A DNA stretch of 64,000 nucleotides from Isurus oxyrinchus. Taxonomy: Eukaryota. Each line of letters opens with the position of its first letter. Position 1 is the first letter of the stretch. The notes beneath the pieces were generated by a model that was not told where the DNA came from, ran no database searches, and was given only the letters and a program-made list of their open reading frames with translations. Made by a program: the position numbers and the translations under genes. This document shows, piece after piece, positions 3,339 through 63,217 of the stretch. The stretch is taken from assembly GCA_026770705.1 (NCBI GenBank), contig JANJGN010000034.1:5394001-5458000 (forward strand), given 5' to 3'.

Positions 3339-3374
3339 ATCTCCAAGATTGTCAGAATACGTTAAGGAATCTAG
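3339..3374 (+). CDS. micro-exon m1, 36 nt, (D)LQDCQNTLRNL
   Basis: ctttctttgttgctctag|ATCTCC...AATCTAG|gtgaga; phase 1-1, open. Confidence 0.88.
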
Positions 3375-3789
3375 GTGAGAAAACAATGTTATTTTGATAG
3401 AAAACATTCACAGCCACCTTCCATTTTTCTTACGACAATGAAAAAAGCAAAATTAAAGATAAAGAGTATCTGTTGAGAATTGAAAGCAAAATATTCAATA
3501 TAAAACAGAAGCAAATCACCTGTAGCAAGATTGGAAGCGGCATGTCAAAACTGTGGCCTCAAACCTCTGGTCCACGACAATTCTAAACGTATTGGAGCTG
3601 CAAAATGGTTTCTGCAATACAGCAGTTTCACAAATTGTCAAGCATACCTACAGATCCCAGCTGAAATACAGATGGTCAGGACAACAGAAGAGGAAACAAT
3701 TCGGACCACAAAGACAGAAAAGAAAAGTTACTGACCAATTAAAGGACAGCTGTTGCGTATACAGATAGCTTCTGATGGTCTAAATATTT

Positions 3790-5090
3790 CAATCAGTCAG
3801 TTAGAGAGGGGGTGAGTAGGCCTGCGAGAGAGTTGATAGGTTTGCAATTGGGTGACTAGGTGAAGGCTGCATGTGAATGAGATGGACAGGAGGGCGACTT
3901 CTTGAGGTGGAGTAACAGGGGAGATGGGATACTGCTTGAGTGGTCAACGATATCCTTGCAATTATTAAGTGGGGGATTAGGTGGTTAGTCTGGAGCGTAG
4001 TCAGGCCCAGGCTGGTGCTTTCGGGTCTGCTTTGTGGAATAGAGGAGTGGCCAGAGTGATTCACATGGATTAGCGTAGTCCGTACTAATGGGATTTGGGA
4101 GGGGTGTGTTTGGGGCCGCTGCAATCTCTGGTTCAGTCGCGGTGGGAGCTGGAACATTTAATGCTACGAGCCATGGAAATGCCCATTAACTTCAGCGGAA
4201 GCATGAAATCTCGCTCTCTTCAAGGAGGTCATATTGCTTCCAGGGGTTTTTCAGAGTCGTCAGCCTGTCGGGACTCATACGAATCTCACGAAGGCTTAGT
4301 TGGGGTAATGGTAGCAGTTGTTTCCTCTCGGCAAGTTTGTGAGCTTCGGTTTTAGTCTCGTCGAGATTGGGATGTCCGATTGATCTCGGATGAACAACAG
4401 TTCCAATCAGATGTTTTTTCATGTTTGAGGTTCTGGGGGTGTTTGGATTTGGTTAGGTCAAGATCGTTGGGCGCGGATGGGTTGGGGTGGGTGTGGTTCA
4501 GCTTGGCATTGGTTCAGTCGCACGTTTTGAGAGCCGGGTGGGCAAACCCTTCTGAATCTTCTGTCAGCTGGGTTGTGAGGTTGTTGGTGTGGTTTTCTGG
4601 TATGGTGCGCAGGCGGCGGGATTTTGCAGCCATGGACATATCTGAGAGGCAGGTGTTGCTCTTTGGTTGTATATTTATTGAGGGCTGATGGCGGGGGGAA
4701 GGAGGCCAGTGGAATGGGCGTGGGGTGGATTTTTCTTGCATGCTTACGGCCAGGAGGTTGTCGTTGTTTAATTGTGATGGGATCGGTTATGCTGTTTAGT
4801 TGAATTGCACTGCTGAATTTGAACAAGTATTCAACTGTGCAACGTTTACAGGTCAAGGAAGCAGGCTTAATTTGAGTATCTTGCCCATGTCTGCACCTCT
4901 AAACTTAGGGTTAGAGAAGTTGACAGAGGGGCCTCCGAAGTTGAGTCAGACCATCGGTGGCTCCCAGGCAATTTCTCTGTTTATATATGTGCAGGACAAC
5001 TGCATGGTCCTGATGCGCATCTCTCAAATTATGGTCCATCTTCACCGATATACTGATTGGAACTTTCAGTCCAGTGTATTTTAGAGGCCC
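3790..5090 (-). mobile_element. Unclassified GC-richer retroelement-like remnant (possibly LTR-element gag/5' region)
   Basis: Sharp compositional block, G/T-skewed on +, with several overlapping broken minus-strand ORFs (3801-4157, 4192-4422, 4458-4856); family not identified. Confidence 0.35.
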
Positions 5091-5737
5091 GGTACAATTT
5101 CATCATACATTGAATTGAATAATACTGCGGGGTGGAAATGAGTTTGATTCATATATAATTCAAATGTACGACATACAAGATAAATATATATGCTATTACC
5201 TGGTTTTGCATTAAACATAGTGCCTTATATTTAATTGTGATGCACTTAATTCACAAATAGCAGTGGATTCTGTAAAGGGCCGTAATTTTTAAATTTTTTC
5301 TTAATGCTATCACTGCTGAAACTGTTCTACTCTCTGTAAGAGTACATTGCTCTCTTGTTCAGAGAATAAAAGAATCAAATAATTGTTGGCTTTTATTTCC
5401 AAAAATGATGTTCAATTATCAACTGTTAAATAATCACAAATCAATTACAAGTGCCGTTTCCTTGCCTCCACCATGATCCATGTAGTTGCTTGTTAAATGG
5501 GTCAAGTAAAATCTAAGAACCTTAAATTTTCCCCTGGGTATGAAATTCATCTATTTTCACAGAGTCCTGGAAAATATTGAATTTCCTTTCCGTGGGGCTT
5601 GGCCATTTGATCATTACGATGGTTTAATTCTAAATCAATTATTTAGTTTCCTTTCAATTCGCCATCAAATATGCACAAACTTATGAACATAGAACTGCAG
5701 TTCTCTATGATCAATATTTACTTTTGTACATTAACAG

Positions 5738-5764
5738 AAAATGCATTGGCTGCCAAAGAAGGAG
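5738..5764 (+). CDS. micro-exon m2, 27 nt, ENALAAKEG
   Basis: cttttgtacattaacag|AAAATG...GAAGGAG|gtaata; continues the heptad register. Confidence 0.88.
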
Positions 5765-7769
5765 GTAATAAAATTTAAATTGCCAAACTATTTAAAAAAA
5801 TGTTGATCATGTTAACTTGTCACCCTGATTGCAAAAAATGCTTGTTTTAATGGTAAGATGTGAAATGTGAAAATATCATTCTACAGCACCTGGTAGAATG
5901 TTCATCTGCTGAAGAATAAAATTTATAAATTGTGTCAAGGCGATGAGTCTTCACATTAGACACTAAGCCCCTGAACGCATAAGCAAGGCTTGTGGAACTG
6001 GATCGCTTTTTCATTGCTGCAATTGCCACTTTTCAACTTGTTTGTTGCATGGAGGCCCTTCTGCATGCTCAGGTCAGAATATGGATCGTGGGCTGCAAAG
6101 GGGAGATTAGAATAGCACATAAATGCGATCGCTATAGTTGACATCGTAGCTTGGAAGACAGAAATTAGATCCTGCAAACATCATTTTGCGTCATGAATGG
6201 TGTATTGCATCTCTGGGTGCGAAGGTGAAACACATAAACTGGAGGATGCCGAAGTTCCTTCATGGAGAAGGAGTGAGGCAGCGAAAACCAGAGATATGAC
6301 ATGTCATCGGGTCAAACATTCAAGTGCTAAGGAGTAGGCAGATAGGTATGACTTCGATGCGAGTAAACTGTATAACACTCAGTACAAAGCGGCAACGTAA
6401 GCACAAAAGAAAGCAAGATCGGGAGAATGAATTCCACATCATGCTGGCTTGAACGATGGACGTACCTGGATTTTTGGACCGGTTGTAAAAAGGGAAGATA
6501 TGGTGTAAAGTGATAGGTTGCACCGCAGAAGGATTGTGAGAATTTTTCTTTACGCAGCAGTAAATTTGACCTAAATTATTGATCGGCAGTTTCCTTGGAA
6601 ATGTACCAAGGATTAATAAGATGCACATAGGTTGCTCAGTAAAATGAAATAGCTGCAATCAAGTACGATCAGACGAGGAACACTACGAGAAATATTTTTT
6701 AAAAACTGCACTATAAAGCAAGCAGGACGTCCGATGAAAAAACTTGGAATTCGAAAATCACCAATAGTTTTAACTGACAAAGTCGGAACTTGTTTTACAG
6801 TGATAACAACAGCTTACTTAATCTGTTCAGGTCCAAAGCATTCAGATTTGAAAAGGATGAAATAAAACATGGGGGATAACCATTTATTCATTATATTTAG
6901 TTAGATTTGAGAAACATCAAGAACTACAAATCCAAATAAAAAAATGCTTATGACTGTGGATAACTGTCACTGCTAGGTTGCTAGCACTTCATATGACTGG
7001 TCGGCTAGTTGTCGGCGCTAGGGTACAATAAGGCTCTTAGGAAAATAAATAAAAAGAAAAATCACAGATAAGCTGGCTAACATCTATATTCCTGAAACAG
7101 GAAAGCCAGTGTTTGCTTCATCAAAATCGTAATAATTATATTAATTATTAAAAAAGAGAGGAGGAAGAAGAAGATGATGAAGAAGAATTGCCTCAAAGTA
7201 GTGCGACAGGAAATCGTGATAAATGGTTGTCTTTCATTTTGATGTTAGTCAGTTGCCCTTTCTATGCTCAGCCGACGACATTTGTTGATGTATGCTGCTG
7301 CATTTTTTTTCAAATTAGGCCATAGAGGAAACTAGCTCCATTTCAAGCTTCCAGATGGGAATGACGCACAAAGTGATGAAAGAAATCAACAGAGAAGTTG
7401 CATTTGGAATTTACTGCAGCAAATGCGAGCTGATACAACTTGGCAGAATCGATAGCGAGAAGAACTGCATATAAACCGAAAACATTACATTGCCAACCGG
7501 GAATTATTTAAATTTTAACAGTTGGAAATCGTGCAATTAAAGTTTTCCTATTTTTTAGCACCACACCCGATATTCTTGTCTGTTGAATGCATGGAATATC
7601 TTTGGCAGTTTATCAACCCCATGTACGACCCCCACGTCTTAAATTGGCCAATGAATCAATCTAATAATCTGGCTCCAAGATTCATGTATTTTAACATTTT
7701 GAGTAAAGCAACATACCGACAATGATCGAATACAACAGAAGATCACCCTGAAGAGGATGAATTATTTAG

Positions 7770-9200
7770 CCCTTCCTCTGGTTTCTTACGGCCGTGCACT
7801 TTAATGATGGAACAGCTCTGCCCATAAAAGTGATTAGGCCACGTAGGCTGCTGTCTATTAGCATGGTGACTGCAGAGGCAATCCACGGGTAGGAAAGGAA
7901 ATGTGGAGTAAAATTGAGAAAATATATTTGCATGACCATCGAAAAGTGCACCAAGGAAACTGAATGAAGTCCTCAGGGAGACAGTTCTGAATCAATGGAA
8001 TGAATGACCACTAGACCCAGCACTGCAACCAGACATGCCTTCACTTACATGTGTCACCCTACGAGTCTAGGTTATGAATTCTATGCTCTAGGATGAAAGG
8101 CTTTTCAAGCTTTATTAGATAATTGTGATATGAAATGATATCTGTACAGTTAAGGACATAATTACGCCACTTCTTGATAATTCGATCTGCATATTTCCAG
8201 CTTTGAATTTCAAACCCCTTTGAATGACAGGCCTGCTCAATTGAGTGGACAAAGGAAACTTGTGTGTATATTTCTTGAGGAGAAATCGGCTCTGATTCCA
8301 AAAATTATTATCAAGGGTTCTTGGCTTGCTCGTTACGCAGGTGGAGGGGCCAAATGTTCTGATATAAAAGGAGATTGTCGACTCGGTTGGAGTCACAAGC
8401 TCTGATGAGGAGGATAGAAGTGTTAGAAGGAGGGGACGAGTGAGATGAAGAATGAAACACAAGGATGGGTACGGTAATGTGGCACTTTAGAAAGAGGACA
8501 AAACAACTACAGAATTCGAGGTTCAGGAATAAATGAGAACAATGCAGTGGAGGCCCAGACGGTCTTAATTCCAACCCACGCGTATGCAGGCAGAGATTTA
8601 GCTACCTGCCACTGAACTCATGAGGTAAATAGGCCTTTGGTGGAACTAAGAACAGCACCTCTTCATCATGCCAACACATGGCCTCGTCGGCAAGGTCCTC
8701 TCACTGAGCACATGTATTCATCATCTTCCATCTCTTCCAAGTGCTTCTTAACTTCTGCTGACGCCTACCATGCGCTGCAAGAAAGAGGGAACTATGCATG
8801 GCCTCACAGAATGAGGAGCAAGATTTCTCCCTTCTAGAATGACTTTCCCATAGGTCTGAACGAGCAGGCATATTTGGTTGGCAATATGAAATACAGGCAC
8901 TGCTCCACAATGCCAAAATTTGGAGAATTGCAGCACTTGAAAAATTCTGGAATCTATTAACATTTGCCAACCATTGATATGTTTTTCAGAGATTGGCTAC
9001 TATAAACTAAAAGAGAAAATACTGGAAAATAGTCAGAAGTACTCGAATAATTCGTGGACAGAGAAATAAAGCTAATGTTTCGATAATATATGACACTTCT
9101 CCAGAGCTGAAAAGACCTAGAAATGTAATGAGTTTCATACTGTTGAAGACAAGGGATGGATTAGGTGGAGCAAAATACGGGGTTAGGCATACGTGCAGCA
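7770..9200 (-). mobile_element. Old LINE fragment (probably L2-like), antisense
   Basis: G/A-skewed block with broken minus-strand frames; resemblance recalled, not aligned. Confidence 0.35.
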
Positions 9201-9874
9201 CAGGAGATATTTGGCAAACATATCATTTACACAAGACAAAGGCTTTGCTTACTCTTTTAAAGTGAATGGAAGGTGCTCCAAGTTGCATTAAGGTCAGCCA
9301 CCAGAGAGTTCTAATAGAAGAGCAACTACAAATGGTCTCTGAAAGCTAAATATAAAAAGAGTTACGGTCTGGCCTTGTTGGGCGAGTGGGTTAGGGGAAA
9401 TATCAACATGAAGGAAAGCATTTATGGTCCAAATTTGTTGAAATCATTGTCAAGTGCAGATGGTGTTACAGACACCTTTCAGAAGGTGTAGTGCTGACAC
9501 TTCAGTTTGCTTTGGGGACGTGGTTGTAGATGACGTCAGCTTCCACTTATGCCTTGTTCAATGTACCTGCTGTTTCCGAGACAGGGCCCCCAGCCGTCAA
9601 GCACTCGCTGGACGGCTTCACCGCCTGCAAGGCACCTTTGCATCTAATGCACAGAAATTTGCTTATGATCGCGTGCAAATCCAGCTGCAGAAAGTGCGAT
9701 GAACGAGCCACCGTATCAATCGCCTCAGTGACTATGTTCAACCGGAATTTCTCTGAATGTTTTTGAATATTGGGCAGGGTTGTAATCACTGCCCAAGCAC
9801 AGCAAAATCCACATGCCCTGCACCGAAGACGAATAAATAAACTTTCAAATGGTACATTTCTCTTCTGATTTCAG

Positions 9875-9910
9875 ATCTGAAAATGTGTGAAGCAGAACTG
9901 AAGAAGACAA
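9875..9910 (+). CDS. micro-exon m3, 36 nt, DLKMCEAELKKT
   Basis: ttctcttctgatttcag|ATCTGA...AAGACAA|gtaggt; paralogous to m1 (DLxxCxxxL). Confidence 0.9.
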
Positions 9911-9989
9911 GTAGGTTATGCAGAATCCCATCAGGATTCACATGGATATAAACATCATGGTATTAACACATGGCATTCTAGGTTGGCTT

Positions 9990-12260
9990 TTATTTATTTG
10001 TAGAACGGGTTGTTGGCGTGGCTGTCTAAGGCAGAATTATTGCCAATCTCTAATCGCCAGTGAGAATGTGGTGGTCAACTGCCTTCAGAAAAAGCTGCAC
10101 TCCCTGTGGAGTAAGTATATCCACCTGTCATTGACGGAAGGAGTTCCCAGGTTTTAAACGAGGAGCGGTGCAAAGTCGGCGATCTATTTCCAAGTCAGGG
10201 AGGTGAGTTGTTTTGAAAGGAACTTGCTTGCTCGTTTTTCATGTGTCTGCTGCACTTGCCCTTTATGTGGCAATGTTTTTGGGTTTGGAATGCGCTGCCC
10301 CAGGGGCATTTTTCAGTTAATGTCGTGCATCCTTTAGATGATTACATACTGCTGCTGGTGGCAGAGGCAGGGAATGTTTGTAGATGGGGCGCCAATCAAG
10401 TGGGCTGTTTTGTGCTGTTTTTTTGTTTAAATTAGTTCATGGGATTTGGGCTGCGCTGACTCGGCCAGCATTTATTGCCTAGACATAATGACCATTGCGA
10501 AGGTGGTGGTGAGTTGCCTGCTTGAACAGCTGTAGGTGGTGTAGGTACACACATAGCGATGTTAGGAAGGGAGATCCAGGGTTCTGAAGAAGCAAATGTG
10601 AAGGAATACAGGGTGGTGAGTGTGTTGGAGTGGAAATTCCAGGTGGTGAAGTTACCATCTATCTGCTGATCTTGCCTTTCAAGATCGTAGTCCTCGTGTG
10701 TTTGGAAGGCGTTTTCTGAGGAGCCTTCGTGATTTCCTCTAATGCATATTGTAAATGGGACACTTTGATGCTGCTGTGCATCGGTGGTGGAAGGATGAAT
10801 GTTAATGGATGTGGTACAACTCAAGCGGGCTGTTTTGTCCTGGACCGTGTCAAGCGTCTAGAGTATTGTTGGAGCTGCACACGCCCAGGCAACCGAACAT
10901 TGTTCCAACACATTCCTGACGTGTGCATTGTGCATTGTGGACAGGCTTTGGAGACTCAGGTGCTGAGTTTGTCGCCGCAAAATTCGGAGCCTCTGACCTG
11001 TTCTTGTTGCCTCAGTATTTAGACGGCTTGTGCAGCTCACTTTCCGATCAATGGTAAACACCGAGGATGCTTATTCTGGGGGGCACAGTGATTGCAATGC
11101 CATTGCCTGTCAAGTGGTGACGGTTAGCTCCTCTCTTGTTGAAGATGGTCAGCGGTAGGCACTTATGTGGCGGACATGTTAGTTGTCACTTGTCCGTCCA
11201 AGGCTGGATTTTTGTCCATGTATTGATGCGCTTGAACATGGATTGCTGCAGTATCTGAATAGTCATGAATTGCGCTGAACATTGTGCAATCGCTTCTGAC
11301 CTGCTAATGGAGGGAAACACATTAATGAAGCCACTGAAGGTGATTTAGTCGCGGGCACTACCCTGAAGAGCAAATTGATGTCACATGTGCTTCTAGCAGC
11401 AACAATGACCTGAAATTTGAGCTACTGATTTTCTCGCTGGATATCACTGGGATTTCTGCTTAATAAGTCACAGATCTCAGATTTTTTTTTTAATCTGCCA
11501 TATGGGTGTACTTGATGGCTGCGCTCTTTGAGTTGTTAGGGAAAGAAAAGTTTTGTTTTAAGAATAAGCATGCATTACGATCGAAAACAGACAATTCAAT
11601 TTGTTTCAATATTTCACATGATGAGAGTGTTGCTCGCTAGGCTAACGTTTTTTGACTATTCCATATTGCATTCAGAACGTGGTGGTCATCTGCATCCCTA
11701 TGCTCTGCAGTACATTTCGTGCAGATATATTCACAGTGGAATTAGGGAGGGAGTTCCAGGATTGTGATGCGGAAATTGTGGAGGGACAGCATTTTTAGTT
11801 CCTTGTTAGGATGGTCTGTGGCATTAATGGGCCAATATGCCAGTGTTTGCTTTCACAGGAAAATTCTGCCCTTATCCTTTGAGGCGATGGCGTGCTTACA
11901 TGTTGCATATAAAGGAGTATTAGTGAGTTGGTGCACTGTTGATCATAGTCACTGTGGGAACTGGTAGAGTGAGTGGATGTTGAAAGATGTGGATGTGGTG
12001 CTCTTCAAGCATGCTGCGTTATTTTGGATGGTGTAGAAATTCTTGAGTGGTGTTCGAACTACACTCATACAGGGAAGCGAATAATATTCCACTACACTGC
12101 TGAATTGTGCCTTGTAGGTCGTGACTAAGCATTAGGCAGCGTGGCGGTGACCTATTATTTCATCAAATCATAACCTCTGACCTGCTCGTTTAGCTAAAAT
12201 GATTATATCCAGTTCACCTTCTGCTCAAAGGAAAGTCCTTAGATGTTGAGAGTGGAAAAT
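9990..12260 (-). mobile_element. Cluster of degenerate LINE 3' fragments (same family as 385-2690), antisense
   Basis: Recurrent motifs 'ttattgcc...aatcgcc...gaggtggtggt', 'ttccaagtcagg', 'ctctgacctg' at about 10040, 10470, 10990 and 12175. Confidence 0.65.
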
Positions 12261-12342
12261 TTCTGCCGATTCTGTTATCACCAATATAACGACTTAAATC
12301 TGCGAATGGGAGATAACGACAATATTTTCTTTAAATACACAG

Positions 12343-12369
12343 AAAAAGAGTTGGCCGAGACTGCGGCAG
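12343..12369 (+). CDS. micro-exon m4, 27 nt, KKELAETAA
   Basis: ttttctttaaatacacag|AAAAAG...GCGGCAG|gtaatc. Confidence 0.88.
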
Positions 12370-13291
12370 GTAATCAATTTTGGAAATAGTTGGTTATGTC
12401 ATCATTTAGATTCATATACCTTTCTTGATGGGTTTGTGAGATTTTGCCTTGATTTTCAGGATAAGTTTTTCAAGGACCATATACATTTGCAAAAAAGTGA
12501 AACTGCTATATTCAGAGCGAATTTGCACGCGCACCAAATGTTTGCGTTCGATGGAATCAGTTATCGATTAGAGAACTGATCTAAGTGCGGATAGTTAACC
12601 AGTCAGTTGCTGATCTTTCCATCATCCATCTTGCTGGTGAGAGATGTTCCGAAGCATGACTTAACACGATGAGAAAATTTGCTCGAATAAAACGGGAGCG
12701 AAAAGATAGCAATTTCTCTTAACTGGTAAATAAGCAAAAGGTAACAGGTTTTTTCTTATTGTTAATAATTGGCAGTGCATTATTGTGATCTTGACTTATC
12801 GCCTTGCCTGCAAATGTGGTGGGAGAAGATTTTGTCATGGACTTTACAGCAGATTTCGCAAATATTTTGATGCGCGACATGCACTTTTTGTGCATGGAGT
12901 CAAGTGGAACTAAATGCACAACCCTCACAAAGATGCAGTACATAGAGGATGTACAGATTCCGCACACTCGGTGCTTTATTGTGCGATATATCCCACCTTA
13001 ATATTCTGGAGTCCCAGCTGGAAATGCAACTGCTTGCATGTGTGGTTAACTGGGGTGATCCCCTTGAGTTAAGCAATCAAACTTCACGTTGTAGTAAGAT
13101 TATCGTACAATAAACCGCTGTGGAAGTTAGCGCTGGACCCGTTTACTTCCTCAACTTCGACACAAATGTAACACTCATATTAGAGGAAGCAAATAAATCA
13201 GAATGCAGACTGTTATCCAGTTCAGCTCTCACGTTAAAGATGCAATGTTTGGAATACAAAAATGTATTTTCTGGTGTGTTTTTTTCTGCAG

Positions 13292-13321
13292 AATTGAAAA
13301 AGTGTAAAGGATCTAAGCCTG
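13292..13321 (+). CDS. micro-exon m5, 30 nt, ELKKCKGSKP
   Basis: T-run then ctgcag|AATTGA...AAGCCTG|gtcagt; its Cys is 21 aa after the m3 Cys. Confidence 0.85.
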
Positions 13322-15249
13322 GTCAGTGATCGTAAATGTTAAGTCATTTGTGGTTATCACCAGATATACTGGAAGATAAAATCCTGAGTTATGGAACTAA
13401 AAATGATTCTGTGTGGAATTATGATGCATATCTACAATGAACCAATAAAATAATTGCATTTCCTGAAGCGACCTGCTGTTCCCAATCGCCCATGCGTTCC
13501 AGCTGTGAAAATTGCATCAAGTATTTTATCGAAAATATCAGGGTAAATGATGAATTACATGGGAGGAGCTATACATTTTTGAAGATTGAGAACTGGTCAT
13601 GTGGTCTATCATTTGGAAGCGACTTATTTATTTTTTGTACAAGCCACTAGCCATCCTTCCTTGCCTCAACTTACTGACGCCAGATTCCATTTCTCCAATC
13701 CTTGTTTCATGATCGTCTCCACCTGTAGCTGCATCTGTGCACTCCGCCCGATATTGGTTATTTTGTATCCATCTCAAAATTCTGATCTCCTGTTTGAAGA
13801 ACACATATATTAGAATATTATTTAAGAATCTATCTTCAAACATTTAATGATGTGGATAAATATTGGTTCATGTTGAGCATCTGTGCACAAGCGGAGAAAA
13901 AATATTCCACAGCAATGTAGCTGGGTTGAACGGGGGAAAAAAATGTAATTAATGCCTGTCTGAAGGACCTCAATTCTGATCGCAATACCCCAGAAATATT
14001 CTTGCAAAATTCATCCATTCGAGAAAAGTGTTATTCTCTGCTAAATAAAGTTCATTCCTTAACGTTTAACGCTCCAAAGCGTACTAGAATTTTACATAGA
14101 ATATCAAATTACAACGTGAGGGCATACTACTGAATTTCTGCAACAGAGCCAGACAGCCAACTTTACTGTTGCTGCCGAATATACGAAGGATGTGATCCAT
14201 TTTCTTTCCCACTTAAACTGAAATTGGACAAGGATATTGGACGCAATCAAAGTTAACTCAACCTCAACTCATTGAAAAGAATATGAACTGTTCTGAGCAT
14301 CTCCTGGCCACTTCAAACCCGGAAGATCCTTTTTTCTTGGAATGTATCATGATTGCTGTCGCAAAATGTGTGTCATTATCAAGTGATCGATGAATGAAAT
14401 GTTCTCCTGAATATAGCCTGTCAGAAAAGTCTTATATTGCCGATTCTTAATGTTATTATGATTACATGCTTTAAAAAAAATCAATGTTTAATCATCTCAA
14501 TGCAATCTTCAAATGCCAAAGGGGACAGAGGCTCTGGAGTCATAAGTGGGAAAAGATTTCGACAACACAAGCGCTCAATTTTTGATGAAATGAAGAATGG
14601 AGGCCAAAACTTTCCTTTCATATTCCAATACCTGTAATTCCATTGCATGTTCACTATAATTAAGATTCCGTATTTTCATGTTACCTCCTATCCACTATCT
14701 GATGCATGTGTGCAGAAATTAAATCTGAGTAGTGAAATGGCAATCTACTGGTTTCGTTATGAAAAGGAAAGGAAACAGGGCAAGCCAATGCTCAACCAGG
14801 GGCGTTCGAATCAATGACGTGCAAGACCTTGAAACAAGGAGTTCATTTAAGAAACAAATCTTCACAAAAAACGATTTGGATCACAAATGCATTTCAGTTG
14901 GGAAATTGTAGTCCTCGCCCCATCTTTTGCTTCAGACAACAATTATGTAGACTCTTAACTTCCTGCAGCAATGTTCAAGCAATCGCTACAAAGAGGAAAA
15001 TATTACTGCGACAGGGTCTTGATGTAATATATAGGGATAAAAACCAGTAAGCTTTCCAGGTGCACCAATCATGCCTTCCTCGCCAGCAGCAGAAAAGGGA
15101 GAATTTCCAATATTAATGGAAGTCATTATTTCAGAATCTACAATAAAGGGGTAGCGGTGCTGGGCAACACGGGATTCTGGGGTGATGTGGGTTGGCGAAA
15201 CAGCAGGTACTTGGAGATATTTTAGCAAATAATGCAGAGACACCATGGA

Positions 15250-16989: not shown

Positions 16990-17085
16990 GTTTGTTTTTG
17001 TATGTCTGTGTGGGTGTGTGTGTTTGTGTGTGAGTTCATCTGTTAGCTTGTGTTTGTGCTTATGTTTGTTTGTTTGTGTGTGCAT
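16990..17085 (+). repeat. Degenerate (TG)n/(TTTG)n microsatellite
   Basis: Seen directly. Confidence 0.85.
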
Positions 17086-17448: not shown

Positions 17449-17475
17449 GAGGACAGAACCTTCAAGACGAATTAG
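17449..17475 (+). CDS. micro-exon m6, 27 nt, GGQNLQDEL
   Basis: long T-run then ctcaatcag|GAGGAC...GAATTAG|gtagaa. Confidence 0.82.
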   Translation, partial: EDRTFKTN

Positions 17476-20039: not shown

Positions 20040-21170
20040 TCATCAAGCATGTAGAGTCATGAGAGGGAAGGCGAATCTAATCAGGCAAAAACTCAATATC
20101 TTTCAATCAAAAACAAAATTGTGAAATGACTTTTGAACTGGTATGCAGCTGCCCATCTTCAACAATAAACTGCTTATCTTGGGTTTCCTTTAAGGTATTA
20201 AGAGACCAAGTGGGGCATCAAGGATAGCTAGTGAATTTGAAATCAAGGAGAAAAATGGGGGGAAAACCTCAATATTGGCTGGAGACTTAACAAGCACGAA
20301 CAAATCTAATTGTTTCTGACAGAAGCTAATCAAACCATCGTACATTATCGTTGCAAGAGTTCCTCAGGGGACATATTCATCTGTCTCATCAGTTGTATTG
20401 AATGCATCATAACGTCACTTCGCTAATGATTGTGCAATTTTCAGTTCTATTCCGGTACCTCATCTAATAATAAAAAAATAACTAGCAGTCATGGACAATG
20501 GCCTGCACACAAATGAAAACAGTGCCCAATTGTATCATTATTATCCCTCAATACGTTGCATCAATTTTAAAGGCGTTGCCATAAATGGTTCGCCCGCAAT
20601 TAACAACATGGAGGCGGCCATTAAAAATAAACTTAATTGGTATAGGCACGTAAATGCAGCCGCTGCAATTTGAGGTCAGGCAGTGGGAAATCTGCGTAGA
20701 GTACCTGACATCCTGGCTCTCCAAATCCTGCCACCACCTACAGGATGCAAGGCAGGTTTTCTTCCTGAATAACACTATATTACCCTTATGCCTGCAAAGT
20801 CATTAGTACTGATTCAAGTAATTTTGGCAACAAACGAACATTCCACAAGGCAAAATAGTACACGTCTTGGACACTCCACATATCGATTACTAGCGCACGG
20901 TAGGAACAGTGTACGATACAAAGAGCGATCCAGGAACTCAGTAAAATCTTTCAAGAACACGTTCCAAAATTAAAGTTTCTGTCGCCTTGAAAGATCAGAG
21001 CAGGAAGGAATTTGGCAAACCACTAAACGCATGTTCTCCTCGAAACGATACAGAAACTGGTCGGAGGTATGTCATTATTATTTTCGTCGTCAATCAGTTA
21101 AAATCCTGGAACTCGCTCTCGAACAGCGCGACGGTCTGCCACACCACACGGACTCTACTAATTCAAACAT
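20040..21170 (+). mobile_element. Degenerate LINE RT/3' end, sense
   Basis: 'ttcgctaatgattgt' (FA[N/D]DC, RT catalytic-motif remnant) near 20420; 3' motif 'aaaatcctggaactc...aacagc...caccacacggact'. Confidence 0.65.
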
Positions 21171-21849
21171 GTTTTTCCCCAATTTTCCTTGCCACAAAAA
21201 CCACATCACGTTAATAAAAATAACATAATTTGTCTTGTAAGATATTGTAAAAAAAAAACTGAAGCTTTAGGCAAAGTCGGGATTGAAAATCAGTGAGGAA
21301 TTTTAAATCGAGACACTGCTGAAATGAAACTTGTCTTATATCTGTCCAGAAGTTTGTGTTAGTTTGTACACGTGGAACCAAGTTGTCCATGCCTCTAAAT
21401 TTAGGAGGGGGTGCGTGATGTGAGGCCGTCAAGTACGGCATTCCAGCTGTCAAATTTAGGGGGAACATGGCTGAAATCCTCAGCAATAATTTCGGGAAAA
21501 GGGGCATGAATCTGGAGGGTCCGTGACACTTGATCAAAGTGATTTCGGAGAGGATATGACAGGAACTATGAAAGATATTAGGGAAAGATGGAACCTCCGG
21601 TTGAGAACATTTGTCAATATTTGGTGATTTGCAGCCCAGTTGCTTGGGGCAACGAAATATGCATACAGAAATTGAACAGTCGGCCTGATCTGCACAGATA
21701 TATAAGTCAACATCTCCGGACCTGCAACAGCTATAACGCCGAACTTGTGTCTTCGATCAGTTTCAGCCTGAGCAACATATGCGTTTGATGTACATCTATG
21801 AACGAGGTGTTTCTACTACTTAACTGATATTTTAATAAATATTTTATAG

Positions 21850-21879
21850 ATAAATGTGAAGCACTTCTTCGAGACGTCA
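21850..21879 (+). CDS. micro-exon m7, 30 nt, DKCEALLRDV
   Basis: aatattttatag|ATAAAT...GACGTCA|gtaagt. Confidence 0.85.
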
Positions 21880-22371
21880 GTAAGTGTGGTCCTTTATTTT
21901 TTGGAGTCGGCCATTTGCAACTTCCAGTAATTGTTACCACGAAAGAAAATGCTGCCTTAACTCGAGATAAACACGCGCGGCCTCACTTCAGACTTTTTAC
22001 AGTCATTAATTCCCTTAAGTAAAAAAATGTACAAACCTCAACTTTGAAAATTTTAGTCTACCCTGTGCTGCACAGCATTTGTTTAAGAAATCCCGATTTT
22101 TACACTCTTTATCGGAAAAATTGTTGTGAAAGGCCCAGCAGTTATTTTTTCATTGGATGAGGCAAGCGAGGTGCGCGAATCTTCGGAACCTTTGGAGTCT
22201 ATGGCCAATTACTGTAACGATCACAAGCATTATTAGTTCAGTAGAAATTAGCATGAAATCCATCAATACATGAAGTATTCCGCTCCACCAATCACAGTTG
22301 AAATTTTATCTGGCAGCAACTGTGAATAGAGAGAGTTGGTGTTTCATTTTGATGGTCTTTCAAAATTACAT

Positions 22372-22514
22372 AGAGATAAAAACTAAGAAAACTGCGGATG
22401 CTGGAAATCCAAAACAAAAACAGAATTACCTGGAAAAACTCAGCAGGTCTGGCAGCATCGGCGGAGAAGAAAAGAGTTGACGTTTCGAGTCCTCATGACC
22501 CTTCGACAGAAGGG

Positions 22515-22548
<34 letters not shown>

Positions 22549-22713
22549 CGCCCCCCCACACACACACCTTAAACCAGCTTATATTTCAACTCTTTCTTGG
22601 ACTCGAAATCAAGTTCTGTCGAAGGGTCATGAGGACTCGAAACGTCAACTCTTTTCTTCTCCGCCGATGCTGCCAGACCTGCTGAGTTTTTCCAGGTAAT
22701 TCTGTTTTTGTTT
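22372..22713. mobile_element. Young truncated Penelope-like element with perfect 100-bp inverted arms and a flanking direct repeat (TSD)
   Basis: 22412-22511 is the exact reverse complement of 22614-22713; TTTCAAAATTACAT occurs at 22358-22371 and 22711-22724. Confidence 0.85.
22611..22651 (+). ncRNA. Minimal type-I hammerhead-ribozyme-like motif in the Penelope-like repeat (variant core CUGUCGA); mirrored copy on the - strand in the left arm
   Basis: agtt-CTGTCGA-a-gggtc(atgag)gactc-GAAAC-GTC-aact: stem I, stem II, GAAAC and a GUC site are present; the core differs from CUGANGA. Confidence 0.55.
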
Positions 22714-23842
22714 CAAAATTACATGTCTGGGTTGAACGCTCATATTTGCAGGGGTGCTCATTTTCTGAAACACTTTGCTGCTGTGCACCTTTACAGTCAA
22801 TTATTCTATTAAAAAAAAGTTTAAAGTTTGTGATATGCGACGATTGTCAACGGAAGGATAAAAAAACTTGGGCGGGGAGTTGTTATTTTTTTATTTGGCG
22901 GTGGGAAAAGTGATAAAAATCTTACGAAATGACCATTTTATGTTATATTTGTGATTCAGAGAGAATTCCAGAAGGCTTTTTAAGGCATATTTATGTAATT
23001 CTGCCCTGGTCATCGAAGCTGTTAACGCATGGTATAAACGAACAAATGTTGGAATTAAAATTCATCAGAGGCGTCTAGCTCTTTGACTGTCCGTCATTGG
23101 CACAACTAACTCAAACTGACATTGACTACAATGGAATTCACAGTTGAGTGAAGCCTTGAATGAAGCGATTCAGGACAGCAAAAATCAATCTAGTAACTGA
23201 ATCGCATGTCGGGAGAAATATGGATTTGCTGTGTCTCTTTCCGCACTGGGCACGATTTTCATGTCGGCCATGAGATAATATTTTTGTCTGCAGCGCACTT
23301 TTCCAATGTGAAATCGGATCAATTTTTCAAAGTCTATTAAAACAAATAGCCTCTATCAACTAGTTTTATATTCTCTATGTGTGTTTACGCCCAGTTCATC
23401 GCTACTTTCAAAATCACAGGATATATAACTGAAAGATCTCAGTCACAAGGTTGAATATTCAACTCTAAGCATTTCCATTCATTATGTTAATTCAAACCGC
23501 ATCAATGGACTATCGCAATTGTTGTCTCTTAATAGAGAACTCAATTCAATTCAGGCCTGATTTTTGAGATGGATGTCGGAAAACGCATGACAATCATGGT
23601 AGGGCAGATTCCAATATCCAGCCTTAAAACACTGCAATCACATTATCTCGCAAAAATGGAATTGCTATCAAAGGGAGGTCGTTTATTGTAACTTGACTGT
23701 TTTTTTTCCCAAGCCATACAATATATATCCTTCATAAATTCATTCGAAAACAACGTGAGACCGCTTCATGTCGTGAATAGGCATATGCTCGTTTCCTTCC
23801 GTTCATTTTCATTAATGCTCTGCCATTAACATTTTTAACCAG

Positions 23843-23869
23843 TTGCCGAAAACCTGAAGCATGAAGAAG
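23843..23869 (+). CDS. micro-exon m8, 27 nt, IAENLKHEE
   Basis: catttttaaccag|TTGCCG...GAAGAAG|gtgatt; a 9-aa exon here is what the heptad register between m7 and m9 requires. Confidence 0.7.
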
Positions 23870-24569
23870 GTGATTAACGCTGCTAATATAATATAAGTCA
23901 TTTATCAACTATAAAATGTTCCTTTTCCTTATGTACTTCACAGCACTTCCATATCGCATTGTAATTACTTCCATTCCTCCACTAAACATCAAAGAACACG
24001 CCTAAGGCAACGTATTTTCAGCTGCTCCGTCTCTGGTGCAATGATGATCGAATCGGCGGTTCCTACACGTTTTTAATTACGTGGCGAGAGAAACATTTGG
24101 CTTGCTCTGTCTTCTCATGTTGCTTGGTTGCCAAAATGCAACTTGGGATTAACACATCAAAGAATGTTCTTCGTCCCGTGGTGCCTCCGGTACTGATATG
24201 TAATGTCCCAGTGGCCACAATCTTTGCGTTTCGACTTGAAAGATGTTTTCTGGTATGATGCAATATACATTGTGGAAAGAGGGAACAGGGGCTTGTTTTT
24301 TTGAAATTCAGGTTACAGGCTTGTCTCAATCAAAGACGTTTTCATTCAGGCCTTCTGAGTGTCTTTCTGGTTTGCAAAATATGTATTTTGGGAAAGCGAA
24401 CACAAGTACCTTCACAAGTTCATTCTGCTCATGACCCAAGGCATGCACAAAGATGGAATGGCACACACATGTATGGAAGAATGTTTGCCCTTCCTGCCAA
24501 AAAAAAACTACAAATGCGTTTGTTCACTGGATTCATAAGGCATGAGAGTTCTATTGTGCCTTTCGGATA

Positions 24570-25085
24570 GGTCATGCAGGAATGAACAGGGGAGAAAAAT
24601 CGACATCAGTCCCAACACTCCCGATATCGATCACCCAGCTTATTTGATATGCTAGCAGAGATGCTCTCGTCTTTGAGTGGAAAGTCGCATGGTGCAATGT
24701 TCCACTCCTGACCTTCGAGCACATAATTTGGGTTTGTACATCCACTGCCACAGTTGTGCCCTTTGGATGCAACATAGAAATGATGGCACAGTTTTCCCAT
24801 CCATTGGATGAAATTCCTCCCCTGACACTATTTCAAATAGGAACGTCTTACCTGGCCTTCAATTTCTTGTCTCGGCCAATAATTGCCCTTCACAGACACT
24901 CACAAAAAGTGTATGATCTGTTCATTATCGCATTCTTACCTGTGGGAGCTCCTTGTGCATATATATAAATTTAAAGTTGTTTTTGCAACATCACAGGAAA
25001 GACCACTACAAAAAATTAAATGCTTGCAAAGTATTTTGCGGACATGCTGAGGTGCTGAACAGTGTGTGATGATTGTATATATTTT
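24570..25085 (+). mobile_element. Degenerate Deu-domain-type SINE remnant
   Basis: Remnants resembling the recalled SacSINE/DeuSINE body ('ccactcctgaccttcgagcacataat') and an L2-type tail ('ttttgcggacatgctgaggt'). Confidence 0.4.
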
Positions 25086-25274
25086 AAATATGCTAACCAT
25101 ACTTAGAAACAAACTTCCTTGGTAAAAATGCAGTGCCAGCTAACAAAATCTGAACCAAGTGCAACTCAAGACTCTTCTGCACCATACATGCCCAGCAAAT
25201 GTTGCTGGCGGTCAGGATACGGGAACTACCTCGTTTTTGTTCTAACAATCGCAATTGTTGTAGGTGGGTTGGTG

Positions 25275-25896: not shown

Positions 25897-25932
25897 CAAT
25901 TGACCTACTGGAAGAGGAACGTAAAGATGCTA
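25897..25932 (+). CDS. micro-exon m9, 36 nt, AIDLLEEERKDA
   Basis: tccatctgcttccag|CAATTG...GATGCTA|gtaagg. Confidence 0.85.
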
Positions 25933-25999
25933 GTAAGGAATCACATTCATACATATGTTGTCATTTGAAATGAAATGATTCCTTCACGTCCTGATCACG

Positions 26000-28331: not shown

Positions 28332-28358
28332 AGGACAAACTTAAGAAGCTGCAGACAG
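28332..28358 (+). CDS. micro-exon m10, 27 nt, KDKLKKLQT, with non-canonical (GG) acceptor; possibly skipped or dead
   Basis: ttttcctttttaaatttcgctttcgg|AGGACA...CAGACAG|gtaacc; good pyrimidine tract and donor, right size and register, but cgg where cag is expected. Confidence 0.6.
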
Positions 28359-33013: not shown

Positions 33014-33040
33014 GACGAAAGTTGCAGGATTGCGAGAAAG
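33014..33040 (+). CDS. micro-exon m11, 27 nt, GRKLQDCEK
   Basis: tttattttcttcatacag|GACGAA...GAGAAAG|gtagag; LQDC motif shared with m1. Confidence 0.85.
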
Positions 33041-36892: not shown

Positions 36893-36928
36893 AACTGAAA
36901 CAACTGAAAGATGAATTAGCAAGGCTAG
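36893..36928 (+). CDS. micro-exon m12, 36 nt, ELKQLKDELARL
   Basis: ttctttgtttttgccccag|AACTGA...AGGCTAG|gttaga. Confidence 0.9.
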
Positions 36929-38265: not shown

Positions 38266-38292
38266 AAAAAGAACTGGAAAAGAAAGACAAGG
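38266..38292 (+). CDS. micro-exon m13, 27 nt, EKELEKKDK
   Basis: ccattaaaatatacag|AAAAAG...GACAAGG|gtaatt; paralogous to m4. Confidence 0.88.
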
Positions 38293-38977: not shown

Positions 38978-39004
38978 CTTTGGATGCAAAGTGCAAAAAC
39001 ACCG
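38978..39004 (+). CDS. micro-exon m14, 27 nt, ALDAKCKNT
   Basis: ttcattttgtttctatag|CTTTGG...AACACCG|gtaagt; KCK motif shared with m5. Confidence 0.88.
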
Positions 39005-39595: not shown

Positions 39596-39599
39596 ACAA

Positions 39600-46229: not shown

Positions 46230-46482
46230 CCCCCCCACCCCCACCACCACCACCACACCTCCCCCCCCCCCATCTGCACACCAAACCAGCCCCAGCAACC
46301 CACACAAGCACACACACACATAGACACACAATTTGTCTCGTGCACACAGTTGAAGATATACATTGGAATGGGCACATATTTGCCCACACAAAGTACACAC
46401 ACTCAGACACACATGCACACACACACACATACACACACACACGCACACACACACACACACACAGGTACTCACACACACACAA
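46230..46482 (+). repeat. C-rich tract plus interrupted (CA)n microsatellite
   Basis: Seen directly; explains the low-complexity ORFs 46091-46580. Confidence 0.95.
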
Positions 46483-51461: not shown

Positions 51462-51488
51462 ACCAGAGAGTGGATGACCTTAAAAAAG
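51462..51488 (+). CDS. micro-exon m15, 27 nt, DQRVDDLKK
   Basis: tatgcttatgttacag|ACCAGA...AAAAAAG|gtatgg. Confidence 0.85.
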
Positions 51489-56967: not shown

Positions 56968-57003
56968 AACTAAAAGACGTTAAAGATAAACTTAAAGCTA
57001 AAG
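56968..57003 (+). CDS. micro-exon m16, 36 nt, ELKDVKDKLKAK
   Basis: gttttcacttttcag|AACTAA...GCTAAAG|gttaga; paralogous to m12, including the same donor. Confidence 0.9.
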
Positions 57004-59796: not shown

Positions 59797-62759
59797 GTAA
59801 GTAGAATGCTATTGGCTGTAGTTGACTTGGCGCAGCTGGGCACTGTTTGAAGGAATGGTCATTATGATCACAACGGGATTGATTGCAATTCAACATAGGT
59901 GAGAGGATAAAATGGGAGTGTCATAACTAATAATTTGCTACTTCGAACATTACATCACATCAGGCATACCAATCAATGCAGCTACAGAGTTTGAAACTGA
60001 TAGGAAGAAAGACTTATGAAGCATTTTATAGAATTATCGGAAACGTCAGCCCTTCCTTTGGTGTGCGCTAGTGTGCATGCCCACAGGAGCATCCACACAA
60101 AATGTTTCATTTATTTTCACTCTAACGTGCATCGATACATTTCCTACCATCGATGTATCTGTTTTTATTTACTTAAGTGACTCAATGTTATTGGTCCAAG
60201 CTACTACAAGTGGGGCTGGCTTCAATATTCAGGCGATTCACTTTCGCAGGACGTTTGCTTGGGAGAATTCTCATTTGTAAGGAAAATTATATCGCAATGC
60301 TCCCTGAATTTCGATGTGAAGATTTTGTCAAATTAAAGGTCAATAGGTTATTTTAATCTTGTTCTAACGCCTCAGCACCTTAAAGAATCATACACGTTCC
60401 CGGATCGACGTTACTGAGTGCTGACTGCAACCCAAGTTCATGCACAAGGGCATTTTGAGCGTTCCCCGATCAGTTCAAGAGCTGAAATCGCACGTCGTTT
60501 CATTGCAATCCTAAAGACATTGGTAGTGTCACCTCTGTCACTCTGCCTGAGATACTATTTGAGGGCAGAGTAAAAACGTGCTCGATCAATATGCCTTGTC
60601 ACCTATTCTCCATTCAGACATGTTGGGGATTGGAGTAAAAGAACAAAACAGGACAACTTGAAAAAAGGATGATTTCTGTTGCCAAGAATGAGCCGACACG
60701 CATTGCCGAGGTAAAAGCTTACTCCTCTGAAAGGTCAGTCGCTGTGAATTGATGGCACTTTGGGTGCATTCAATCGACTATGCACCCAATGAGTGCCATT
60801 GAAAAATAATGTTTCATGTCGCTATGAGGCCTTTTGTGCCATGAAATGAATTTATTGTCCAATTCCAGCAAAGAGGGCAACAGCAGCCCCCTGTTGCAGC
60901 AAGGTAAAACCTCGTGTGAAATGGGACAGAAGTCCACCTCTGATATTTTGAAGGAACTAGCAACGGGGAGATAAAAGGCGGCTGAAATTTTGGAGGCTGC
61001 AAGAATAAATGGCTGCCAAGCTACATGTTTTGAGGCCTTTGGCGATGAGTCCAAAGATGACTGTGGCCTGCCTGGAGAGTTAAATCCTATCTGGGTGCTG
61101 GGACCTTTTGGCCTTTATATGGTTTTGATGGTCTATCCGGTGGTGAGGCTCTAACTCTGCTTCTTCCCTGCCATCTTATGTCCTGTTGCTTGGAGTCCTG
61201 TCTCAGCCGCGGAGTGTGCTGTCATCCTTCACTAATGGTCCCAAAAGCTGACAGTCCGTCCGCAATACAGGGCGCACTTCCGATTTGGACATGAAACCAC
61301 ACAATGGTTTTTAGCAGCCTTGGACTTCCGGTTGATAGCAAGTTAACGTCTGAGTGCTGAAGGCCCACTCCCCGAACATCTTAGACACCTAATTATCAAA
61401 TTTCATATCAGCCTGTGCCACAGAGTTTTTATTGTGTCTGCTGAATTATTGAGTCAGCTATGCTTTGTTCCTTGTTCCATACTTCACTATCCCATTTTTG
61501 GTATTTTTCCTCTCCCCTTTTTTTCCCTAACACTCACCAAGAAGAACAACTAAAAATGAGGCCGTACAATGTTTTCATGCACCTTAATGCTAAAATTGCT
61601 AAAATTGCAACGGATTTCCCTTCCTTCCGCCTCCCTGGTTAAGAAAGGCCTACTTCGGAAACAGCACTGCCAGAATGTTTGCAGCCACGATTCACATCCT
61701 GGCACATTCTGTCCCCATTAATTCGTTAGCTTGTAAGGGAAATGAGGGCAAAAAGATGTAGCTTCCTTTGTCAGACATGGTTTATAATTTTATTGCCTTC
61801 AATGAAGCTAAATCGTATGCCCTGCCTATCAGAAGAGACCAAATCAACCTCATAGATTTCATTCATCTCAATTTTGATGGCACGAACATTCACCCGCCTT
61901 GTATCCTTTCCTGGCTCCCTTTGAAAATACTTGCTGCCTCTTCCTGACACGTTTCAGCCATGAGCATAGTCTTCACCTCCCTGTATTTCACTGAAAAATA
62001 TAATGCAAGCCCAGCAGATCAGGCCTTTCAACAAGGGGGCAGCCTATCACTCTTTTCCCTAGAAACAACTGGATTACTCATTGAACATTCAGTGGTCGAT
62101 AACATAATGATTTTTTTTTTTTGGTACATATAGCGAAGGTTCGGTTGGTTCCAAAGAGTAGTCTGCTAAGTATAAGAAACATATGATGATAACTCATACA
62201 CCTCACAGGTATTTCGAAGTACATTCTGTGAGAATTTATATTGTGGAGCATGCTACCTCATAGATTAATGGCTGGAGGGAGGCCGGGGGACGGGGATTTA
62301 TCAAATGATAATTAAGTGTGGTAGTCAGCAAAATAGGTTACAGTTTTACTCCAAAATGGGATGATGCTTCTGTACAACATATATGCCAGTTCCCAAACTT
62401 TCAGAACATGTTTTTTTTTCTCACAGTTTTGCTTGTTCTGCATGATTGGATGTGATCATATGGCACAACAAATCGTTCTATCAATTCTAATTATACACGC
62501 ATGCACACTCCGGTCTGTCATCAGGCCATTTTTCATATAATTAACTCATCTTGAAAAATCGTACACTTGAAAATTAAGGCACCCAGTAAATGTCCCTTTT
62601 TCATATAAGACCGAATAAGTCCACACTCGTTGTCATGTAAACATTTTGTCCTACCACCCGCAAACATAATTCATCTGTACAGGAATTGTTGGCCAGCATT
62701 AAAAATAAAGTTATTGCTGCTAATACATCGATTATTTGTTTCTTTTTCCTTGTGCTCGC

Positions 62760-63150
62760 TGAACTGCACTGGCTACAACTATAGAAAATCAGGACTTGAT
62801 GTTCCTTCCTTGACTAATCACCTCCCCATGACATCCCGCATCCTTTCCATTGCTCTAAACAGATATGATTATTCAAGACTACCTTCTTCACACCCTCGAA
62901 AATTAACCAAAAGCCAAAAACCCGTGAATGTCAATTGTTAATTCTGGTACCTCACATCTGGATTTGACACTCTAAAATTGTTCGATTCTACCTCACTCGC
63001 GTTTCTTTTTAAACGCTGTTAGAACCTCCTCTCTTTCTGTCTTGGGGTCATGCTCCCTGTTCCATTACCTTCGACAGTCTCCCCACTGAGGACATCCTTG
63101 GGAATTTGAAATGAAAGGTTACACTTATGGATGTTAATGCTATTACTGTT
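62760..63150 (+). mobile_element. L2-like LINE 3' fragment
   Basis: C/T-rich 'cacctcccc...ttttaaacgctgttagaacctcctctcttt' pattern. Confidence 0.35.
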
Positions 63151-63190
63151 TAAATGAAGTTAATCATATTGCTGTTCACCTCTTTTTCAG

Positions 63191-63217
63191 AAACGCAGAG
63201 ACTTCTTCAAAAGACAA
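63191..63217 (+). CDS. micro-exon m19, 27 nt, ETQRLLQKT
   Basis: ttcacctctttttcag|AAACGC...AAGACAA|gtaagc; ends like m3 (AAGACAA|gta) and shares CTTCTT with m7. Confidence 0.85.

Follow-up and report, generated by a model that had tools for sequence, protein, structure and literature searches.

Here, we analysed a 64-kb stretch of the Isurus oxyrinchus genome (G000:C34:5394001-5458000, plus strand; C34 is contig JANJGN010000034.1 of the 4.98-Gb assembly GCA_026770705.1), hereafter the window, and found that it carries a series of very small symmetric exons that together encode a coiled coil. The feature is in all probability real and part of a real gene. Our preferred explanation, to which we assign a probability of about 0.6, is that the window is approximately 5% of a functional gene specific to chondrichthyans (gene B), which comprises ~300 symmetric micro-exons encoding a rod of ~3,000 residues and ends in a C-terminal B30.2 domain.

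The first scans of the window, which searched for phase-1 segments between AG and GT with vertebrate splice-site weights, revealed an excess of 27- and 36-nt segments on the plus strand. By splice scores alone, with neither a composition nor a stop filter, the plus strand has four candidates of 27 nt and five of 36 nt, compared with none or one at any of the remaining lengths between 15 and 45 nt, and one at each of 27 and 36 nt on the minus strand; all nine are stop-free in phase 1, versus five and four in the other phases. A second model was trained only on exons from outside the window and applied to stop-free 27- and 36-nt segments between AG and GT or GC. At a cut-off score of 17, it accepted 13 of 474 plus-strand candidates, and the best of 443 candidates on the minus strand reached 14.3. 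Together with two 30-nt exons that have strong splice sites (at 13292 and 21850), this gives 15 robust exons (Table 1). These and two doubtful candidates join into a stop-free frame of 519 nt and 172 residues, rich in Lys (19%), Leu (17%), Glu (15%) and Asp (10%). Thirteen weak candidates (e.g. at 29528, 47769, 60250, 38151, 28831 and 27809) were scored with the outside-trained model and rejected.

The array runs on far beyond the window, ~0.35-0.5 Mb upstream and 0.94 Mb downstream. A contiguous read of 5.094-5.758 Mb (664 kb) found it throughout, with 32, 52 and 43 splice-only candidates at 21, 27 and 36 nt on the plus strand, against 3-20 at 28 other lengths and 10, 13 and 6 at the same three lengths on the minus strand. 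Phase 1 was stop-free in 121 of the 127 plus-strand candidates, compared with 63 and 53 for the other phases and 20/29 on the minus strand. The trained model reported 155 sense and 10 antisense exons over these 664 kb, a partly in-sample count (112 training exons came from there), and 35 sense versus two antisense exons in an out-of-sample stretch of 115 kb at 6.140-6.255 Mb. Each of nine 6-kb samples from 5.78-6.10 Mb holds at least one exon. Genome-wide motif searches placed 9/9, 7/7 and, for a looser motif, 4/29 matches on C34, and for one exon motif the interval 3.54-7.45 Mb of C34 holds 53 of the 57 matches in the genome (control, 5).

Exon density is high from 5.05 Mb onwards, with scattered 27-nt candidates at 4.896 and 4.933 Mb, and the exons of the array are spaced 1-12 kb apart. 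A block of 21-nt exons, of which ~28 are intact heptad exons, lies inside the array at ~5.085-5.303 Mb, and 15-nt phase-1 exons were noticed late in gene B (C34:6.167-6.236 Mb; L104-L111). A gene boundary had been expected at 6.14-6.255 and at 5.05-5.086 Mb, and micro-exons run through both. Three stretches, 5.758-6.140, 6.255-6.394 and 4.82-5.05 Mb, were covered by samples. Extrapolation from exon density gives an estimated size for gene B of ~1.3-1.5 Mb, with ~300-343 exons and ~2,800-3,300 residues.

A preliminary description of the window had proposed a hidden micro-exon gene for a coiled-coil protein, with 19 exons joined into 564 nt and 188 residues. The micro-exons are real, and the enrichment in length, phase and strand, together with the heptad pattern described below, bears out a gene of this kind; the count falls to 15 robust, two doubtful and one dead exon with a correspondingly shorter join, and the span of 60 kb was too small by about twentyfold. 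The limits it gave, 3339 and 63217, do coincide with the first and last exons found in the window, and its phase-1, stop-free frame rich in Lys, Glu, Leu and Asp is the one recovered here. It also placed the termini outside the window and suggested that the model be extended into the flanks, where the array indeed continues on both sides and reaches a B30.2 end at ~6.396 Mb.

The coding property shared by these exons is a heptad pattern. Hydrophobic residues occupy positions 2, 5, 9 and 12 of the 36-nt exons in 88, 89, 80 and 38% of cases, positions 4 and 7 of the 27-nt exons in 69 and 30%, and positions 2 and 5 of the 21-nt exons in 90 and 48%. A 36-nt exon followed by a 27-nt exon would place these residues at 2, 5, 9, 12, 16 and 19, which is an exact 3-4 heptad spacing over 21 residues, or three heptads. 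Runs of 36-27-27-27 (39 residues) are also present and would insert breaks in the register. Cysteine occupies the d-like place in 23-32% of cases and makes up ~3.7% of residues overall. A joined frame of 1,452 residues contains no stop and only 0.4% proline. N-glycosylation sequons show no enrichment or depletion (4 vs 3.4). The heptad register is kept by the genomic order of the exons: when exon order was shuffled, the observed power at period 3.5 was reached in 2/1000 shuffles for 17 window exons, in 0/1000 for the 121 exons after the 21-nt block (window included) and in 0/1000 for 35 exons at 6.14-6.255 Mb. The continuous a/d heptad and the low proline content are those of a two-stranded coiled coil, and the residue pattern suggests a dimer.

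Downstream of the window, the first B30.2 exon of this subfamily is a 172-codon terminal exon at ~6.396 Mb. Five such exons were found on C34, at 2.709 (-), 3.474 (-), 4.817 (+), 6.396 (+) and 7.497 Mb (+), and a sixth on C21; the plus-strand genes of C34 are referred to as A, B and C. All are intact, with a phase-1 acceptor, a stop codon and AATAAA. With the third of them upstream of the window and the fourth downstream, gene B should end at 6.396 Mb and start after 4.817 Mb, and no further subfamily B30.2 was seen between these two positions among the 150 scored of 283 candidates. In four of the five C34 genes a 27-nt phase-1 exon shortly precedes the B30.2 exon; in gene B it lies 630 bp upstream, on the same strand and in the same phase as the window exons. 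Trp occurs at the same place of this exon in genes A and B and in three of six database relatives. The proposed splicing of the B30.2 exon to the window exons rests on strand, phase, order and the models of relatives.

The encoded domain is a C-terminal PRY-SPRY, which places the protein in the B30.2 superfamily, and its Atlas features correspond to SPRY clusters at 0.96. A SPRY family search listed one C34 match, at 3.474 Mb, among 150 scored, and a PRY family search none on C34 among 150 scored of 313. For the minus-strand paralogue, SPRY was matched at E 2.9e-18 and PRY fell below reporting at E 0.001; the PRY half thus appears divergent. Predicted folds were poor, with a predicted local distance difference test (pLDDT) value of 53 for the B30.2 domain of gene B (six sequences) and 45 for one of its two closest relatives (P0172); the fold search listed only B30.2 domains, at a root-mean-square deviation of 15-17, and was given no weight.

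Micro-exon arrays were seen ahead of four of the five C34 B30.2 exons, those at 3.474, 4.817, 6.396 and 7.497 Mb, and the five paralogues perhaps fill ~4.8 Mb of C34 with ~800-1,000 micro-exons together. The part of gene B at 5.10-5.457 Mb, which bears the window, corresponds to only ~80 kb in gene C, so rod length must differ greatly between paralogues. The minus-strand gene and gene A are apparently arranged head to head, with 5' ends that should fall in C34:3.885-4.107 Mb; no micro-exons were found in three 5-kb samples of that interval.

To identify relatives, a profile of six B30.2 domains was searched against 1.84 billion representatives, and the top single-domain matches with a named source were all chondrichthyan. 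They include a predicted Callorhinchus milii protein of 1,697 residues that carries coil and B30.2 in one chain (XP_042192744.1, 'nuclear-pore anchor-like') and predicted models from Leucoraja (XP_055510696.1, 'TRIM69-like'), Scyliorhinus (XP_038668997.1 and XP_038672306-310, 'TRIM39-like'), Narcine (XP_069775384-390) and C. milii (XP_042191566-568); a Cetorhinus model and two Logan fragments were further top matches. Most relatives are fragments of 175-460 residues with alternative starts, named TRIM39/58/69-like, and these partial RefSeq models carry misleading automatic names. Their isoforms, as predicted, differ by internal cassettes of nine residues (three species) or six. The 36-nt exon profile matches the coil of XP_042192744.1 15 times (shuffle mean 1.85, maximum 5). 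Among longer proteins, a homologue search with the B30.2 of the minus-strand gene recovered one true relative and that with gene A's B30.2 none. As a separate observation, residues 905-1015 of the C. milii model P0078, the other of the two closest relatives, interrupt the coil with ~13 copies of an eight-residue repeat rich in Pro, Thr and Asp, which was not seen in gene B.

In a quick tree of 49 B30.2 rows, our six domains and seven from databases form one clade (support of 100 by the Shimodaira-Hasegawa-like approximate likelihood ratio test, SH-aLRT), apart from 21 TRIM and nine Ig-bearing (immunoglobulin-bearing) rows, with a sister group that the tree leaves without resolution. The C. milii and Leucoraja proteins fall together with genes A, B and C (support 92), and BTN rows are scattered (6 changes). 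The sixth B30.2 exon (L124, G000:C21:89.72 Mb), which lies on the contig that carries most of the TRIM-type B30.2 exons, is closest to the Scyliorhinus canicula 'TRIM39-like' isoforms. More tentatively, and with somewhat less than even confidence, we propose a family confined to chondrichthyans and at least as old as the chimaera-shark split, whose members are giant rods composed of a short leader, a coil of up to ~3,000 residues and a B30.2 head, with at least five paralogues in this genome.

If the exons of gene B are spliced in order, the product would form a parallel two-stranded coiled coil with Leu or Ile at a and Leu, Cys or Lys at d. An alpha-helical coil rises by 0.15 nm per residue, and the rod might accordingly extend ~0.4-0.5 micrometre, holding paired B30.2 heads far from an N-terminal leader and perhaps serving as a long-reach tether or scaffold whose B30.2 domains bind a partner. 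With all exons a multiple of three and in the same phase, the reading frame survives the duplication, skipping or inactivation of any one of them, which makes rod length tunable; it may be set by exon duplication, skipping and loss, as in BG tails.

P0078 and P0172 begin with a short hydrophobic stretch (11-residue hydropathy 2.85 and 2.93; only 1.59 and 1.48 over 19 residues), and in P0078 it is followed by a basic cluster. Because these two closest relatives have a hydrophobic leader and no Ig or RING domain, our best guess is that gene B starts with a signal peptide or signal anchor, as judged from these predicted proteins. Given such a leader, core cysteines and short leaders would favour entry into the secretory pathway with interchain disulfides at d-position cysteines, which we rank slightly ahead of a membrane anchor with a cytoplasmic rod; the latter is favoured by the basic cluster and by the usual cytosolic location of B30.2 domains, which also argues against the secreted variant. 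A free cytosolic protein ranks third.

Several results weigh against a single functional gene of this size. No N-terminal exon was located in this genome, either in the upstream stretches searched or among leader-like matches, and a hydrophobic leader is present in only two of seven relatives examined, all of them predicted models. No relative was recovered with the coil of P0078 as query. An internal gene boundary without a B30.2 exon may lie within the stretches that were only sampled. Paralogous exons show little sign of amino-acid constraint: in 18 independent pairs chosen on their intron flanks, differences at the three codon positions number 20, 18 and 23 (of 131), and of the single-base changes 11 are synonymous and 29 non-synonymous, which is near neutral. 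Moreover, 12 of 40 high-scoring 21-nt copies are broken, although a few of these are near-threshold artefacts.

The strongest of the alternatives, although unlikely in our judgement, is a true butyrophilin- or BG-type receptor. In such a gene, exons for a signal, Ig V (and C) domains and a transmembrane segment would sit further upstream than the stretches read, and the array would form a huge cytoplasmic tail with B30.2 at its end. In its favour, genes A, B and C carry phase-1 heptad exons of 21 nt towards their 5' ends, and the best solved match of gene B's B30.2 is BTN3A1 (E 6.8e-20); a small-exon tail followed by B30.2 is also the butyrophilin layout (PMC4046983, PMC8813856). On the other hand, Pfam scans of eight relatives, which are models that may be incomplete, detected no Ig family. 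Micro-exons continue ahead of the 21-nt block of gene B, and the 36 kb read there showed no Ig or transmembrane exon; the 18 kb ahead of gene C's block (L125-L126, C34:6.4305-6.4485 Mb) showed none either, nor any convincing exon. Leader-like matches were at chance level, and a stop follows the best of them (L114:5847); two ATG codons with hydrophobic runs, near L114:5693 and L126:498, were rejected for want of a convincing phase-1 donor. Peptides of the upstream exons gave no convincing match to P0078 (for two of 29, the observed match was reached by at most two of 30 shuffles). Two Ig-bearing B30.2 proteins of C. milii furthermore fall outside this B30.2 clade in the quick tree. Finally, W350-H351-Y352 of the BTN3A1 pocket (PMC7348870) align to Gly, Ser and Trp in gene B; with His351 replaced by Ser, phosphoantigen sensing as in BTN3A1 is unlikely.

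Somewhat less probable again is that the exons are real and the full rod is never made, through internal promoters or heavy skipping, with the window perhaps in a transcript that lacks B30.2. The short database relatives with their alternative starts would fit such a situation, as would the partial sampling of the span and the absence of homology between the stretches read ahead of the 21-nt blocks of genes C (18 kb) and B (36 kb). Against it speak the heptad register, which is kept across neighbouring exons over hundreds of kilobases, the single-chain C. milii model and the lack of another subfamily B30.2 among the candidates scored between the ends of genes A and B.

We consider it improbable that the array is decaying or expanding neutrally, with gene B largely a pseudogene after tandem duplication, although the near-neutral substitutions, the broken copies (one of them in the window) and recent tandem repeats of ~28 kb are what such a process would leave. 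When the scan ignored AG and GT, intact and broken copies numbered 55 and 2 at 36 nt, 52 and 10 at 27 nt and 28 and 12 at 21 nt; the broken 27-nt copies are mostly noise, as seven such were found on the minus strand. Wherever a high-scoring copy contains a stop, a splice site is missing too. The 36-nt counts, the stop-free phase 1 over 664 kb, intact B30.2 exons that are 92% identical between genes B and C, and splice sites kept in exons 1-12 kb apart all oppose general decay, and in the 18 paralogous pairs exons are more similar (0.83, i.e. 83%) than their intron flanks (0.74). Turnover is highest in the BG-like 21-nt block, where ~10 broken copies (AG or GT lost, two with stops) are interspersed among 28 intact ones (C34:5.119-5.275 Mb; L044-L030). 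Exon groups of gene B were recently duplicated in tandem at C34:5.885-6.144 Mb with a ~28-kb period, and those of gene C at 7.01-7.16 and 7.427-7.454 Mb with a shorter one. In our reading, selection acts on length, frame and heptad pattern and the exons turn over fast, although part of the array may be decaying. Least probable of all is a TRIM-derived protein with a RING/B-box N-terminus and a hugely extended coil: the TRIM-like names of relatives, the resemblance of gene B's last 27-nt exon (W-K-E-V) to the W-[KR]-[EDQ]-M motif that precedes B30.2 in several TRIMs, and the C21 member among TRIM-type exons are outweighed by the absence of RING, B-box and TRIM_CC in the eight relatives scanned and by a tree that does not tie the clade to any sister group.

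The exons of the window and the terminal exon of gene B are listed in Table 1.

Table 1. Micro-exons of the window (positions within the 64-kb stretch) and the terminal exon of gene B
Feature	Position	Strand	Score	Remarks
36-nt exon	3339..3374	+	30.6	robust; phase 1-1
27-nt exon	5738..5764	+	22.9	robust
36-nt exon	9875..9910	+	25.4	robust
27-nt exon	12343..12369	+	22.1	robust
30-nt exon	13292..13321	+	21.5	robust; holds the sole proline of the 17-exon join
27-nt exon	17449..17475	+	18.5	robust
36-nt candidate	21098..21133	+		doubtful; weak splice sites (13.4), out of register with the 36-nt profile (profile -20.6)
30-nt exon	21850..21879	+	20.0	robust; looks like a 36-nt exon minus two codons
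27-nt candidate	23843..23869	+	5.1	doubtful; weak acceptor
36-nt exon	25897..25932	+	26.4	robust
27-nt exon-like copy	28332..28358	+	22.4 without AG requirement	acceptor reads CGG, not CAG; apparently dead, or else an allele
27-nt exon	33014..33040	+	27.9	robust
36-nt exon	36893..36928	+	31.7	robust
27-nt exon	38266..38292	+	29.2	robust
27-nt exon	38978..39004	+	27.3	robust
27-nt exon	51462..51488	+	17.1	robust
36-nt exon	56968..57003	+	35.2	robust
27-nt exon	63191..63217	+	20.3	robust; has a paralogous copy at G000:C34:6544750 whose intron flanks match
B30.2 exon of gene B	L120:1490-2010 (C34 ~6.396 Mb)	+		terminal; PRY-SPRY of 172 residues

An interspersed repeat, LINE-like (long interspersed nuclear element) by its look, occupies 10400-11370 of the window and has at least 39 other copies at 72-76% identity; a DNA search with positions 1-14000 returned only repeat copies. 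AC and TG microsatellites lie at 46395-46481 and 17003-17082, and scans of the window for tRNA genes and Rfam families gave no match. Four runs from the same species (Logan contigs, their RNA status guessed) were placed on positions 20500-40499. High-copy repeats at 22370-22720, 26740-27370 and 39230-39305 take nearly all of their contig cover, the listed pieces and joints are repeat-derived, and none of the 15 joints listed (33 more exist) joins two exons, which is uninformative either way.

Under the more tentative proposal of a chondrichthyan family of giant rods, the exon number of gene B would be close to that of titin, which has 363 exons, with less than 1% of the span coding, and the birth, death and skipping of exons would act as a molecular ruler. 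The product would then possibly be a secreted, disulfide-stitched fibre or an immune tether. Expressed in full, it would be among the most exon-rich vertebrate genes and nearly invisible to annotation. Nature would also have provided a test case for the recognition, over a megabase, of several hundred exons of 21-36 nt that lie kilobases apart, and for exon turnover as a means of setting protein length.

Among known systems, chicken BG genes encode an IgV and a transmembrane segment followed by a tail of 13-36 exons of 21 (sometimes 24) nt and no B30.2 (PMC4046983, PMC8813856). The likeness lies in a coiled coil built from a string of small exons, a variable exon number and a tandem cluster that expands and contracts. 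By comparison, gene B has an estimated ~300 exons, mostly of 36 and 27 nt (12 + 9 residues, i.e. three heptads), ~3.7% Cys and a terminal B30.2, no Ig was found for it, and its array is not a BG. Butyrophilins combine a few heptads and B30.2 with IgV-IgC-transmembrane architecture (PMC4046983, PMC12841164 and PMC7348870); they are reported in cartilaginous fish, and their heptad number varies in squamates (PMC12841164). Gene B shares with them small heptad exons followed by a terminal B30.2 exon, and BTN3A1 is its best sequence match in PDB, while its clade stands apart from the C. milii Ig-bearing proteins. The comparison with BG and butyrophilins made in the preliminary description was apt, and the contrast it drew with 21-nt heptad exons was overstated, given ~28 intact 21-nt exons in the same array, and is weakened further by the B30.2 end and its match to BTN3A1.

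In domain plan, the nearest proteins are probably the mammalian enterophilins, described in guinea pig, which have a long leucine zipper and a C-terminal B30.2 without Ig or RING, and are about ten times shorter. Enterophilin-1 has been linked to SNX1 (PMC13749957). The closest proteins by descent are the database relatives of C. milii, Leucoraja, Scyliorhinus and Narcine, which belong to the same clade; the C. milii model shares the coil motif, and no model covers the ~3,000-residue rod. Schistosome micro-exon genes (MEGs) encode short, secreted, variable proteins with no heptad design or B30.2. The resemblance to them noted earlier holds for architecture, a coding sequence almost wholly of symmetric micro-exons, and for nothing beyond it; no homology is expected. 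The suggestion of a lineage-specific gene agrees with the seven of seven source-named relatives in the B30.2 clade being chondrichthyan. Calling it possibly undescribed needs qualification, given the misnamed RefSeq models, although we found no paper on a micro-exon coiled-coil B30.2 family in a literature search whose coverage excluded most subscription journals.

Gene B is thus a new and extreme version of the design that couples heptad micro-exons to B30.2, and what is novel here is the size of the array, the cluster of five genes, the block of 21-nt exons, the dead exons and the exon-order test. B30.2 is a ligand-binding module (PMC8813856), and the relation of long BG tails to B30.2 domains has been raised as a question in the same paper. 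The array bears on that question, and by tying 21-nt exons of the BG/butyrophilin tail type to an old B30.2 lineage of cartilaginous fish it bears on the origin of the BTN/BG architecture.

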